From a virus, in UHGV virus genome UHGV-0204578: DNA of 31,092 nucleotides; one strand, written 5' to 3'. Of this stretch, positions 1 through 31,092 are shown one piece after another. The notes beneath the pieces were generated by a model that saw nothing but the letters and a program-made list of their open reading frames with translations, was not told where the DNA came from and made no database searches. Each line of letters starts with the position of its first letter. The first letter of the stretch is position 1. The position numbers and the translations under genes are program-made.

Positions 1-1144
1 TTTTTACTCCTGCAATTAGCACGGGGACGGTGAAAAATCCGTTGTCAGAAGCTACGCCTTTACCTACCCCTGCTTTGGCTATATCGCCCAAACCAAGGTA
101 TGCGAGAAGACCAGCTACATCCTTTCCACTCAAATTAGTAAGCGTATTGTCCAGCGGTTGTTTGCCTGCCAGTGCATTAAGCACTGTTGTTGAAAAGTTA
201 GGGTCATTCCCCAGCGCCGCCGCCAGTTCATTCAGTGTATCCAGTGCCGCAGGGGCAGAACCCACCATTCCTGCAATCGCCGATTTCACAAAAGCCGTAG
301 TGGCAATCTGTGTATTGTTGACCGACTGCGCCGCCGTGGGGGCTGTTGGCGTTCCGGTGAGTGCCGGACTCGACAACGGTGCTTTAAGTGCCAGCGCATT
401 GTTAATGGTGGTACTGAAATTCGGATCATTGTTAATGGCTGCGGCTATTTCTTTCAGCGTGTCCAGCGTGGCTGGCGCACCATTAATAAGGGCCGTCAGT
501 GCCGCCTGTACAAACGCAGTGGTCGCAACCTGCGTGGTATTATTCCCCGCCGCTGGCGTTGGCGCTTTGGGGGTTCCGGTAAATGTCGGGCTGGCTTTTG
601 GCGCGTACTGTGAATGCGGGTCCGGTGCGGCAAGATGTTTTGCCATCTGATCATCCGCGTACACCTTCAGCTCCAGTGCCTTGTCATCCACATACTTGCG
701 GGTTGCCAGCACTACAGCAGGGTCGATTTTCAGGGTGATATTGTCCGTGCTGCTGGTAATCAGCACCATGCGCACGGTCTGAGTGCGCCCGCTACCTTCA
801 GCCAGTTGCGGCTTATAGCTTTCCGGGCAGTTGCCCACGGCAATCAATGCCCCGGACTCATCAAACAAGCCCACTTCACGTATCCACCAACCGCCCTCGT
901 TTTCAGGGATCACCTGTTCGGCAATAATCTGGCTGCTGTTCTGCGGGTCGATATAAAGCATATTCAGCGCAGCCCGGCGTTTCTCATTTACCAGTGCCGT
1001 CTGCTTTGCGTCCGGCGTTGGCAATACTCCACCGCCATCGCCCACCGCCATATGGGTAATTTTTAGCGGCACACCGAGCGCGGCGGCGCTGGCAAGTTTC
1101 GCCGCGCCAATATCCGTCAGCAGGGTATAAAATTTTGTGCTCAT
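1..1144 (-). CDS. H: Tail fibre protein gpH, N-terminal ~381 codons; 3' part of gene lies beyond window start
   Basis: My own minus-strand translation from ATG at 1144..1142 (ATGA overlap with gpI stop) gives MSTKFYTLLTDIGAAKLASAAALGVPLKITHMAVGDGGG..., open to position 1. Matches the P2 gpH N-terminus from memory. Absent from the ORF track because no stop lies in the window. Confidence 0.8.
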   Translation of the reverse strand, partial: MSTKFYTLLTDIGAAKLASAAALGVPLKITHMAVGDGGGVLPTPDAKQTALVNEKRRAALNMLYIDPQNSSQIIAEQVIPENEGGWWIREVGLFDESGALIAVGNCPESYKPQLAEGSGRTQTVRMVLITSSTDNITLKIDPAVVLATRKYVDDKALELKVYADDQMAKHLAAPDPHSQYAPKASPTFTGTPKAPTPAAGNNTTQVATTAFVQAALTALINGAPATLDTLKEIAAAINNDPNFSTTINNALALKAPLSSPALTGTPTAPTAAQSVNNTQIATTAFVKSAIAGMVGSAPAALDTLNELAAALGNDPNFSTTVLNALAGKQPLDNTLTNLSGKDVAGLLAYLGLGDIAKAGVGKGVASDNGFFTVPVLIAGVK

Positions 1145-1746
1145 GGATTCAATCTCATTGTGTCAATAACATGGACCGCCCCGCCTTCATGCGCGGTGCC
1201 ACCGGAAATAATCGTTTCGTTGATATACGGATAGATCGTGATTTCTTCGCCAAGATAGCTGGCGGCTCCCACCCAATGCGGGCCGCTGGTCTGCAGATTG
1301 ATGGACATGCCGATCATGTGGCGGCTACATGGTTTGGCATCGCTTATCAGTCGCTCAAGTTCCAGATAGGTATCTTCAGTGATGCCCTGGTCCTGCACGC
1401 CGATATCCAGGCGAAACGTGCCCGGTGTTTCTCCGGTCTGCCACCACTCAATAATGCGGATCAGGAATCCGAACGGTTCCACCACCCGCCGCACGGCACT
1501 GGTGGTTCCTTTATGCTGATGAATATAAAAAGCATCCTTCACTACCTGGCGTTTGACGCTTTCTGTCCAGCCCTCGTCCCAGCGATCCACAGAGAACGCC
1601 CAGGCGAGATAAGGCAGGAAGCTGACCGGACAGGTAGCCGGATTCCACAAGTCACGCAGCGGCACCTGCAAATCAGAAATCCCGCTACAGGTTTGCGCCA
1701 GTCGGCGCTCCAGTGAAGTTGAACCCGGTGGCAGCAGACTATTCAT
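1141..1746 (-). CDS. I: Baseplate assembly protein gpI
   Basis: 201-aa ORF in P2 gene order between J and H; sequence resembles P2 gpI from memory. Confidence 0.8.
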   Translation of the reverse strand: MNSLLPPGSTSLERRLAQTCSGISDLQVPLRDLWNPATCPVSFLPYLAWAFSVDRWDEGWTESVKRQVVKDAFYIHQHKGTTSAVRRVVEPFGFLIRIIEWWQTGETPGTFRLDIGVQDQGITEDTYLELERLISDAKPCSRHMIGMSINLQTSGPHWVGAASYLGEEITIYPYINETIISGGTAHEGGAVHVIDTMRLNP

Positions 1747-6881: not shown

Positions 6882-7532
6882 TCAGCGGCTGTCATTGCGC
6901 AGTCTGCGCTCCAGCTGCTGTTTGTCTTTTTTCACGCCACAGCGGGGATCGAGCTGTAACGCATGGTTGAGATGATTAAGGGCGGAAGCCGGATTACTTT
7001 CACTCAGGACAGCGCCAATCGCTTTATGCAGACGCGCCCGTGACTGGTCCGGCATATCCAGACCGTCTGTCAGCTCCAGCGTCTGCAGCAACAGATCGGC
7101 ATCAAAGCCGGTAGTGGCAAGCATTGCGCTCTGTGCCGCGTCTGCCATTTCCTCTGCCAGCACGGTCTGCACGTTGCGGTTACCCAGCGGCATCACCCAG
7201 CCATGACGCAGGGCATGACGCCCGATCTCCAGCGCCCCGGCATAATCTCCGGCATCAATACGCCACAGCATCACGTACATCAGCACGTCATCCTGTTGAG
7301 CGCCTCCGGCAGCCAGAACACCCTCCGCCCAGGCGGCGTACTTCGGCAGCAGCTCCACTTTGATTTCCGCTTTTTTGACCGTGGACTGAACACCCTTGAG
7401 ACGGCGTCGGTCTTCCGCCAGTTGCAGCAGCATCAGGTCATAGCCCGACGCGTGGCGAACGCTGCCGCCCTCACGGGCGGCCTGTTCAGCCTGAACGCGC
7501 AGGCGATGCTGCCGTGCGGGACTCAGGCTCAT
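6882..7532 (-). CDS. M: Terminase small (endonuclease) subunit gpM
   Basis: 216-aa ORF in P2 position between N and L; sequence resembles P2 gpM. Confidence 0.8.
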   Translation of the reverse strand: MSLSPARQHRLRVQAEQAAREGGSVRHASGYDLMLLQLAEDRRRLKGVQSTVKKAEIKVELLPKYAAWAEGVLAAGGAQQDDVLMYVMLWRIDAGDYAGALEIGRHALRHGWVMPLGNRNVQTVLAEEMADAAQSAMLATTGFDADLLLQTLELTDGLDMPDQSRARLHKAIGAVLSESNPASALNHLNHALQLDPRCGVKKDKQQLERRLRNDSR

Positions 7533-8610: not shown

Positions 8611-9444
8611 TCAGCAATTGGTCAGAGTGTCAACGGGGGCGTTACCGCCTGTTGCACGCTGGCGGTAGTCCTGGCGGCTGTCTTCATGACTCAGCTTGTC
8701 CACCAGTTCGTTAAAGGCGGTTTGCTGTACCTGCAGGGCAGTCTCCAGCTCAGACAGGCGTTCTTCCTGCTCAGACAGGGATTTTTCGGTGCGTGCGCTC
8801 AGGTTCTGCTGCTCAGTGGCGACCAGCTCCACGGCCTTATGCACATCAGAGAACCGGGCGTCATCGGACTGCTCTTTTTTGGTAAACAGCGCCGTGACGC
8901 GGGCAAACAGGGACGGTTTGTCGTCCTGGATTTCTTCCAGTTCGATCACCGTTTCCTCTGCAGCGGTAAAGAGATTGGCAGGATTCTGCTTGCGGTTTGC
9001 CAGTGGGTTATGGGCTGCACTGGCGCTGAATGTCAGCATTTCAGTGCCCAGACTGGCAGGGTCATCAGTGGCAGCCAGGCCGACCAGGTAGGCTTTGCCC
9101 GTATCAGCGAACTTCGGGCTGACTTCCATAGAGGTGAATAATTTCTGGCCTTTTTTCACCAGTTCCACCAGGGACTCCGTTGGCTCAACGTCGGCATACA
9201 GCGCCATCTTGCCTGCCAGCGGACCTTCCGTGATTTCTTCAGCAAACAGCGCCGTCACCTTGCCGTAGCGGTTAAAGGTGCTGTCCGGCAGATAAGACTT
9301 GATGTGCTCAAGGTTAATCAGCGCGGTATACACCGCCGGGTTGTAGCTGGCTGCCATCTGTTCCAGCCATTCACGCTGGATTTCGCGTCCGTCGGTGGTG
9401 GCACCTTCCACCCCGATGCGAAAACGCTTTGCTTTCACTGTCAT
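8611..9444 (-). CDS. O: Capsid scaffolding protein gpO
   Basis: 277-aa ORF with acidic coiled-coil C-terminus; P2 gpO-like; first gene of the leftward late operon. Confidence 0.9.
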   Translation of the reverse strand: MTVKAKRFRIGVEGATTDGREIQREWLEQMAASYNPAVYTALINLEHIKSYLPDSTFNRYGKVTALFAEEITEGPLAGKMALYADVEPTESLVELVKKGQKLFTSMEVSPKFADTGKAYLVGLAATDDPASLGTEMLTFSASAAHNPLANRKQNPANLFTAAEETVIELEEIQDDKPSLFARVTALFTKKEQSDDARFSDVHKAVELVATEQQNLSARTEKSLSEQEERLSELETALQVQQTAFNELVDKLSHEDSRQDYRQRATGGNAPVDTLTNC

Positions 9445-19761: not shown

Positions 19762-20787
19762 ATGACCATCAGAAAACAGCCGAACGGAAAGTGGTTATGT
19801 GAATGCTACCCAAACGGGAGAGATGGCAAACGCGTACGCAAACAATTTGCGACGAAAGGCGAAGCCATTGCGTTTGAGAATTTCACCATGGATGAGGTAA
19901 ACAAGAAACCTTGGCTGGGAGAAAAGGAAGATCGGCGACAACTGTCAGAAGTGATTGAGCAATGGTATTCCCTGTACGGTCAGACACTCGCTGACCCTAA
20001 GCGATTAATGGCTAAGTTAAAAATCATTTGTAATGGACTTGGCGATCCCATCGCTTCTGAATTGACAGCAGGTGATTTCACAAAGTACCGGGAAGCCAGA
20101 TTAAAAGGTGAGGTCAAAAACGAAGATGGCGTGCTCATGTCACCGGTTAAGCCCAGAACGGTGAACCTTGAACAGCGTAACCTATCCTCAGTTTTTGGCA
20201 CACTGAAAAAGCTGGGACATTGGTCTGCACCCAACCCCCTCGCCGGTCTGCCAACTTTCAAAATTGCAGAAGGTGAACTGGCGTTCCTTGCTGCTGATGA
20301 AATCAAACGCCTGCTTGACGCATGTGCTGAATCTCAAAGTCCCAGTCTGCTAATGATTGCCAAGATTTGCCTGGCTACCGGGGCAAGATGGAGCGAAGCC
20401 GAAAACCTGCAAGGTAACCAGATATCAAAGTATCGAATTACCTATACCAAAACAAAAGGAAAGAAAAACCGAACTGTTCCTATTTCTCAGGAACTGTATG
20501 AAGAATTACCCAAAAACAGAGGAAAGTTATTCACACCATGCCGAAAGGCTTTTGAGCGTGCGGTAAAACGAGCTGGAATTGAACTACCTGAAGGTCAATG
20601 TACCCACGTTCTGCGCCACACTTTCGCCAGCCACTTTATGATGAACGGCGGAAACATTTTGGTATTGAGGGATATTTTAGGACACGCTGATATTAAAATG
20701 ACCATGATTTATGCCCATTTTGCACCTGATCATCTGGAAGATGCCGTTACCAAAAATCCACTTCATAACCTCAACTGGCATCGCTAA
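19762..20787 (+). CDS. int: Tyrosine integrase (P2/186 Int family)
   Basis: 341-aa ORF with C-terminal catalytic region HVLRHTFASHFMMNGGNILVLRDILGHADIKMTMIYAH (R..H..R..Y signature); reads toward the att core. Confidence 0.9.
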   Translation: MTIRKQPNGKWLCECYPNGRDGKRVRKQFATKGEAIAFENFTMDEVNKKPWLGEKEDRRQLSEVIEQWYSLYGQTLADPKRLMAKLKIICNGLGDPIASELTAGDFTKYREARLKGEVKNEDGVLMSPVKPRTVNLEQRNLSSVFGTLKKLGHWSAPNPLAGLPTFKIAEGELAFLAADEIKRLLDACAESQSPSLLMIAKICLATGARWSEAENLQGNQISKYRITYTKTKGKKNRTVPISQELYEELPKNRGKLFTPCRKAFERAVKRAGIELPEGQCTHVLRHTFASHFMMNGGNILVLRDILGHADIKMTMIYAHFAPDHLEDAVTKNPLHNLNWHR

Positions 20788-30769: not shown

Positions 30770-31092
30770 TCAGAACGACCAGTTCACACCAGCTACCGCG
30801 TTCCACGGGGATTCCACACCGGCACTATGGCTATACCCCACCCCAAGATGCCCGCTTAACGTACTGCTGAATGAGGCTTTAATACCTGCCTGGTATATTC
30901 CACGTCTGCCCGACAAATAATTGACGAAATTACCGTCACTATTCACTTTCACCCGGTTATCATCGACAAATTCTTTGCGCACAGCCGCCTTCAGCCACGG
31001 CTCAACTTCCATGCCGTTCCCCAGACGCATGTTGTAACTCAGCGTTGCGCCCAGTTCACGATATATACTGCGGGTATCGACTGATTTCGATT
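30770..31092 (-). CDS. 3' end of a probable outer-membrane beta-barrel / autotransporter gene (5' part beyond window end)
   Basis: Frame stays open upstream of the track M to the window edge (my translation ...SVDTRSIYRELGATLSYNMRLGNG...). C-terminus ...VGYSHSAGVESPWNAVAGVNWSF ends in an aromatic-x-F beta-barrel signature. Confidence 0.45.
   Translation of the reverse strand, partial: SKSVDTRSIYRELGATLSYNMRLGNGMEVEPWLKAAVRKEFVDDNRVKVNSDGNFVNYLSGRRGIYQAGIKASFSSTLSGHLGVGYSHSAGVESPWNAVAGVNWSF

Follow-up and report, generated by a model that had tools for sequence, protein, structure and literature searches.

Tail Fibre Gene and Its Genomic Context

The left end of the window (the whole stretch of viral DNA that was analysed, 31,092 nt) is occupied on the minus strand by the 5′ part of a tail fibre gene of the P2 gpH type (positions 1–1144, 381 codons). 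The gene is open from an ATG at 1144–1142, its translation over positions 1–1144 yields 381 residues with zero stops, and it runs off the left end of the window. In a Pfam scan of this 381-aa fragment, residues 1–150, which form the baseplate-attachment domain encoded at 695–1144 (minus strand), match PF12571 (“Phage tail-collar fibre protein, N-terminal”) over positions 1–150 of 150, with an E value of 8.7e-65 and a score of 217.7 bits versus a cutoff of 23. The top PHROG families for the fragment are all tail fibre or tail proteins.

The fibre ATG and the stop codon of the preceding gene overlap (ATGA). This upstream gene encodes a gpI-like baseplate protein of 201 aa (1141–1746, minus strand, taken from the ORF list); the equivalent 201-aa gene on L004, a metagenomic contig that carries a 100% identical fibre, has the PF09684 (Tail_P2_I) domain. 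The same-strand ORFs upstream of the fibre gene, of 201, 302–315, 119 and 192 aa, are the equivalents of P2 genes I, J, W and V, so that the window displays the V-W-J-I-H gene order of a P2-type late operon, in agreement with the P2 map. The same arrangement is found on L004, where these genes carry PF04717, PF04965, Baseplate_J and PF09684. The PF12571 domain on residues 1–150, together with the location directly downstream of V-W-J-I-type genes, bears out the initial annotation of the gene as a tail fibre (gpH) and supports its assignment, at the sequence level, to the gpH-type fibres of P2-like prophages (Peduoviridae, Wadgaonvirus-like).

The full-length version of the protein, P0007, is encoded on L004, consists of 462 aa, is 100% identical to the window protein over all 381 aa, and has a gp53-like C-terminal domain (PF21882) at its C-terminal end. 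Downstream of the 462-aa fibre gene, L004 contains a 140-aa ORF without a Pfam match, and the loci L005–L007 contain Caudo_TAP; the 140-aa ORF falls within the invertible segment of L004 (7398–9304), where a tail-fibre assembly chaperone would be expected. Closely related genes are found in Escherichia phage 500465-1 (Wadgaonvirus, Peduoviridae; YP_009949230), with 98–100% DNA identity over window positions 87–1144, and in the prophages of 1272 of the 5426 complete Escherichia coli genomes (98–100% DNA identity). This phage and the E. coli prophages share with the window gene the layout of two shaft units at aa 184–331 as well as an invertible distal segment and a DNA invertase adjoining the fibre genes, but the distal segment itself differs, giving fibres of 503 or 551 aa versus the 462 aa found here.

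Two Adjacent 74-Residue Units in the Fibre Shaft

Two tandem units follow the attachment domain. Unit 1 (“A-type,” aa 184–257, ASPTFTGTPKAPTPAAGNNTTQVATTAFVQAALTALINGAPATLDTLKEIAAAINNDPNFSTTINNALALKAPL) is encoded at 374–595 and unit 2 (“B-type,” aa 258–331, SSPALTGTPTAPTAAQSVNNTQIATTAFVKSAIAGMVGSAPAALDTLNELAAALGNDPNFSTTVLNALAGKQPL) at 152–373, both on the minus strand; both were delineated by self-alignment, with shuffling as a control, and by the unit HMM in homologues. The B-type is the type that is found as the single copy in P2 gpH. In the self-alignment, the two units are directly adjacent, align without gaps and share 46 of the 74 residues. The BLOSUM62 local score of A versus B is 234, compared with 37.8 ± 6.9 for 1000 composition-preserving shuffles (maximum 72), i.e., approximately 28 standard deviations above expectation. 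The tandem internal repeat that had been reported in the shaft is accordingly real. It had been placed at 154–589, which is within 6 nt of the true limits (152–595), and had been described as two consecutive units of about 70 aa; the two units stand, whereas their length is 74 aa and their strand is minus. Both peptides quoted in that description are present, at aa 201–257 (window 374–544) and aa 276–331 (window 152–319).

At the DNA level, A and B are 60.8% identical, with identities of 65% at the first, 82% at the second, and 35% at the third codon position. Of the 46 conserved residues, 16 share their codon between A and B, and no exact in-register match is longer than 8 nt. Neither Tandem Repeats Finder nor the finders of direct and inverted DNA repeats reported anything relevant at the repeat, because the units are only about 61% identical in DNA. 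The identities by codon position indicate that the minus frame, and only this frame, is under purifying selection. Furthermore, the low DNA identity, with only 35% at third codon positions, indicates that A and B are either ancient or of separate origin and are not the product of a recent duplication.

A Widespread Module of Tail Fibres

When a set of 1.84 billion representative proteins was searched with a profile built from A and B, the number of matching proteins was 41,607 at E ≤ 1e-3, 13,983 at E ≤ 1e-10, and 1,682 at E ≤ 1e-30; a single protein contained as many as 23 matched stretches. Among the best 150 profile-matched proteins, 74 residues is the commonest spacing between full units (52 pairs), and one protein carries 11 full units. 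In the same set of 150, the N-terminal half of the unit (profile positions ~1–35) is also found alone, in arrays of up to 22, and the unit is therefore composite. Comparison of 175 distinct units yields the signature SP-x-[LF]-TG-x-P-x-APT … N-x-TQ-[IL]-ATTAFV for the first half and AP-x-x-LDTL-x-E-[LI]-A-x-A-[LI]-x-NDPNF … L-x-x-KAPL for the second half. Both A and B carry every position that is near-invariant among these units and score 139–142 bits with the unit HMM.

The module was detected in 315 of the 50,697 isolated-phage records at E ≤ 1e-8. It is present in P2 gpH, Wphi H, Fels-2, P1 S (in two places) and lambda Stf/orf-314, and also in the jumbo phage Goslar and in many minor tail proteins of mycobacteriophages and Gordonia phages (actinophages). 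The closest comparison is with P2 gpH (NP_046775; NC_001895, 12734–14743), which has the PF12571 N-terminal domain, occupies the same place after V-W-J-I, and contains the 74-aa module at aa 256–327 (108.7 bits, B-like), followed by the ..YLGL.. segment. Unlike the fibre analysed here, P2 gpH has a single unit, and the position of unit A is taken by two copies of a different repeat of ~45 aa (..QLSSATNSTSETLAATPKAVK.., PF03406 type) at aa ~170–250. P2 also differs in that it has no invertase and has a different distal domain.

Pfam and NCBIfam scans of the units found no covering model, so that a fibre module present in more than 40,000 proteins is without a Pfam or NCBIfam model. The motif string LDTLNELA of the unit was not found in the literature. 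PF03406 (Phage_fiber_2) has no match, even at E ≤ 10, in the 381-aa fragment, in either unit or in P0007; it is present in other fibres with the same N-terminus (P0315–P0327). The matches of the units to Acyl-CoA_ox_N, HTH_3, DprA_N and Kre9_KNH are below threshold and were rejected as spurious. The precomputed labels PF14749 (Acyl-CoA_ox_N) and PF10342 (Kre9_KNH) on homologues sit on the repeat units. In the four-unit protein P0001, both pass their thresholds (Kre9_KNH, 32.4 bits versus 24.6; Acyl-CoA_ox_N, 27.4 versus 25), because weak matches are summed over the repeats; the repeat accounts in this way for these spurious Pfam annotations.

The two halves of the unit differ in character. The first half is rich in Pro, Thr, and Gly and non-helical, and the second half is helical, with hydrophobic residues at every third or fourth position. 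Large hydrophobic residues occupy unit positions 29, 33, 36/37, 44, 47, 50, 54, 60, 64, and 68, and a spacing of 3–4 is typical of packed helices. An AlphaFold2 monomer model of both units, made from a 20-row alignment of diverse unit pairs, is unreliable (mean pLDDT 45.9, pTM 0.20) and too poor for a fold search; this unreliable model places helices at unit residues 27–55 and 58–69 and shows no regular structure at 1–26. Partial matches to the unit were found in the PDB chains 9D93 (Bxb1 tail tip), 9K09 (cyanophage A4 gp24), and 6V8I (80alpha FibU). The FibU chain is not modelled beyond residue 123, and its unit-matching region is unresolved in the map.

Crossover Site and Variable Distal Segment

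A crossover site of the Gin/Cin/Hin-type DNA invertases (88–108, minus strand, TTCTCGCATACCTTGGTTTGG), which encodes AYLGLG (aa 348–353), starts ~17–20 residues after unit 2 and constitutes the constant/variable boundary of the fibre. The adjoining positions 1–87 (minus strand) hold the first 29 codons of the variable (invertible) distal segment, which continues into the PF21882 domain in P0007. On L004, the site (7037–7057, equivalent to window 88–108) has an inverted partner at 9284–9304 (21 nt, 76% complementary, 2226 nt apart) that ends 56 nt upstream of a resolvase/invertase gene (188 aa, PF00239 and PF02796). The 326-aa ORF of L004 that lies inverted between the two arms matches NHL repeats only faintly and presumably encodes the alternative distal part of the fibre. 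Of the paired inverted sites, one is located within the fibre gene, and it is the only one that lies inside the window; the invertase gene and the opposite-strand alternative segment are found in the related loci (L004, phage 500465-1, and E. coli TUM9754), and a DNA invertase or recombinase is annotated in the latter two.

Wherever phages or E. coli genomes match this DNA with near-identity, the match ends at window 81–90. Megablast matched positions 1–87 to none of the phages or complete E. coli genomes, although the adjoining DNA is 98–100% identical. At the protein level, the same N-terminus and units are combined with different C-terminal domains, namely PF21882 (gp53-like), PF07484 (Collar), or neither. 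Taken from the sequence, the fibre appears to consist of a constant part joined to alternative distal parts, as in Mu and P1, and inversion is predicted. Mu (S/S′, Gin) and P1 (S, Cin) likewise combine a constant 5′ part with alternative 3′ parts at a crossover site within the gene, and the S protein in P1-type records also contains the 74-aa module, in two places. The present gene differs in that its repeat falls entirely within the constant part and inversion leaves it in place, and in that the invertase and the second site are outside the window. The shuffling of tail-fibre motifs and the combination of constant with alternative distal parts are described in general terms in the account of Sandmeier (1994) that is given in PMC8986868. 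The initial annotation considered the repeat a route to host-range change. This proposal is not supported, given that the repeat is confined to the constant shaft and the receptor-binding part begins only at window 88–108. In the literature, a search that combined duplication, unequal recombination, and host range gave no specific result.

Many database copies of the gene are labelled “partial” and end with ..GLLTY or ..AYLGL (P0272, P0276, P0279, P0292). These ends suggest that the coexistence of both orientations causes breaks in short-read assemblies at the invertible segment; the repeat may add to the “partial” entries, although those that were examined end at the invertible segment.

Gain and Loss of Units Among Relatives

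The comparison of repeat number among related prophages, which the initial annotation had put forward as a check, gives 1–4 units: relatives with a 92–99% identical N-terminal domain carry one, two, three, or four. Of the 120 top-ranked homologues of the window protein, two units are found in 105, three in 14, and four in one, counts that come from score-ranked lists favouring proteins with more units and are not frequencies. A search with the N-terminal domain only returned mostly shorter, partial proteins and likewise gave single-unit examples, not frequencies. The three-unit fibres include the layouts A-A-B (P0004–P0006 from E. coli and P0016 from Citrobacter, with A copies 95–99% identical) and A-[B/A chimera]-B (P0002, P0003, and P0015), and the layout A-A-A-B is found in P0001 from Enterobacter. 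In the single-unit fibres with N-termini 93–99% identical, the unit is an A/B chimera (e.g., P0272 and P0274–P0276). Products of out-of-phase recombination are also found (P0281, P0289/90, and P0356).

In a further layout, A-B is accompanied by a third, divergent unit in the variable part of the protein (P0008–P0014). In these 543-aa E. coli homologues, the third unit occupies aa 360–433 and is 51–55% identical to A and B. This location, beyond the crossover site and within the variable distal segment, means that exchangeable parts of fibres use the module too.

Each variant unit was scored at the 85–88 nucleotides at which A and B differ. In L006, a complete E. coli chromosome, a single B-to-A switch accounts for 85 of the 86 sites of the middle unit, with the junction in the shared octamer ACACTGAA, and the gained unit of L007 fits one B-to-A switch at 88 of 88 sites, with the junction in AGTCCG at the unit start; the two A copies of L007 are 97.7% identical in DNA. 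For the gained unit of L005, the fit is 69 of 85 sites, with a switch near nt 78–81, as for an older event. Conversely, the single unit of L008, whose N-terminal DNA is 99.3% identical to the window, shows one A-to-B switch (86 of 87 sites, junction in CTGGCA), and the single unit of L009 an A-to-B switch at 67 of 87 sites. The junctions lie in only 2–8 shared bases.

Unequal crossing-over between A and B is expected to give two reciprocal products, and these are the B-then-A order of the three-unit genes and the A-then-B order of the one-unit genes. Because the chimeras show both of these products, they demonstrate at least five independent in-register events, each a gain or loss of exactly 222 nt (one unit). 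The description of the repeat as a recombination substrate thus agrees with the unit-number series and the single-switch chimeras, with the qualification that the events proceed through microhomology rather than long homology. With 61% identity, a longest run of 8 nt and junctions of 2–8 bases, recombination between A and B is of the microhomology type and rare, and the A and B of the window gene are too diverged for ordinary homologous recombination. A long, near-identical substrate exists only after A-A duplication.

Positions 545–548 of the window, inside unit 1, read CCCC on the plus strand (GGGG in the gene). Loss of one G at this site reproduces the 215-aa proteins P0271 (139 member sequences), P0278, and P0336, which end with ..APTPAAGIIPRRLRPLRLYRRH. 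The truncation may reflect either genuine pseudogenes of prophages in decay or a sequencing error that recurs.

Alternative Explanations

The window contains, on the plus strand, an ORF at 30–650 (206 aa, from the program-made ORF list) that was initially dismissed as a shadow of the repeat. The third codon positions of this ORF coincide with those of the minus-strand fibre gene, which is the classic configuration of a shadow frame, and the Pfam scan gives it no family match; both findings sustain its reading as an antisense shadow and not a gene. An opposite view, in which this ORF is the coding frame or the similarity of the units is a low-complexity artefact, could appeal to the ORF staying open over 206 codons, to the Ala/Thr-rich composition of the region, and to the BLAST low-complexity filter, which masks the first 15 residues of the unit. 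We give it next to no credence: the 46 identities are position-specific and ungapped, the shuffles never score above 72 versus 234, which also rejects a compositional artefact of an Ala/Thr/Pro-rich low-complexity fibre, and the unit profile pulls in thousands of tail-fibre proteins. The codon-position pattern suits the minus frame only and, along with the absent family match, rejects a plus-strand gene. The repeat explains this long antisense ORF, a matter of annotation hygiene. A different question concerns how the two units came together. That A and B were assembled by horizontal exchange from two different fibre genes, rather than duplicated in place, is possible but on the whole somewhat unlikely. 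They are as different as units of different phages (61% DNA identity, saturated third positions), P2 has only a B-like unit placed after another kind of repeat, and unrelated proteins commonly contain arrays of diverged units. However, the head-to-tail phasing at 74 aa is exact and without a linker, the same 74-residue phasing is the commonest spacing family-wide, and in-place gain is documented by A-A-B with 97.7% identical A copies, so that local duplication does operate. An assembled origin would, in any case, leave the nature and role of the repeat unchanged. Some of the variants might similarly represent horizontal replacement of whole repeat regions rather than crossing-over in situ, although such replacement is a poor account of the sharp single switches.

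The units might, furthermore, serve as homologous “handles” for swapping distal receptor-binding segments, which would make the repeat directly a host-range device. Such a function is compatible with the occurrence of the module, at the protein level, in the otherwise unrelated P2, P1, lambda and actinophages, with the combination of the same N-terminus and units with differing C-terminal domains, and with the exchange of segments between tail-fibre genes of unrelated phages (Sandmeier, 1994, as presented in PMC8986868). Nevertheless, near-identical DNA runs across both units and stops at the invertase site (81–90), not in or at the repeat; the units are kept as protein while their synonymous sites diverge, and would offer poor DNA homology between phages; and every junction found alters unit number within the constant region. 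We consider this function improbable.

Proposed Role of the Repeat

Our preferred interpretation, in which we have good confidence, is that the repeat consists of tandem copies of a generic length module of the shaft in a P2-like gene H and that unit number is labile by microhomology recombination. The shaft-module role follows from the position within the fibre, the phased arrays across thousands of fibre proteins, and the hydrophobic pattern compatible with helices. The fibre would be laid out as the attachment domain (aa 1–150), a short linker, A, B, ~17 residues with the crossover site, and an exchangeable tip, such that the units would be generic 74-residue length modules of a trimeric shaft in its constant proximal part. 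Judging from the sequence pattern, each unit probably makes one rigid segment: three chains would pack the unit halves into one rigid trimeric segment of the shaft, each unit would add a fixed increment of length, and unit number would set the length of the shaft. The copies are likely to be old, with saturated synonymous sites and the protein held by purifying selection. Out-of-register but unit-phased recombination between A and B at microhomologies of 2–8 nt would add or remove exactly 222 nt, and once two near-identical A copies (97.7%) are present, ordinary homologous recombination could expand the array further (A-A-A-B).

Unit number could also tune the reach of the fibre to the thickness of the O-antigen or capsule of the host, with variants that have the same tip differing in adsorption or host range. 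We regard this idea as a long shot; if true, unit number would be a second, tip-independent axis of host adaptation. In the T4 gp37 gene, as Tetart and colleagues are said to have reported in 1996, “His-box” duplications occur in the receptor-binding tip, and an experiment reportedly showed an extended host range. The similarity to the present gene is that recombination at short homologies within a tail-fibre gene duplicates a small domain; the difference is that the duplicated unit here belongs to the proximal shaft, whereas that of T4 belongs to the receptor-binding tip.

Since databases contain entries identical to this gene and the fibres of P2, P1, and lambda have the module as well, the repeat is an ordinary feature of an already known kind. 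Mildly useful by-products are a clean 1–4-unit series with mapped junctions and an abundant module without a curated family. With respect to phage engineering, the series suggests that the P2-type shaft can be changed in length by steps of 74 residues, with the attachment and receptor-binding ends untouched, and the junction at the invertase site after unit B would be a natural point for tip swapping.

Remainder of the Window

There is no tRNA gene in the window. Phage-like DNA matches end near 20.8 kb, just after a 341-aa ORF (19762–20787, plus strand), whose location at the edge of the phage-like DNA leads us to regard it as a putative integrase. The remaining ~10 kb, up to position 31092, looks like host chromosome.
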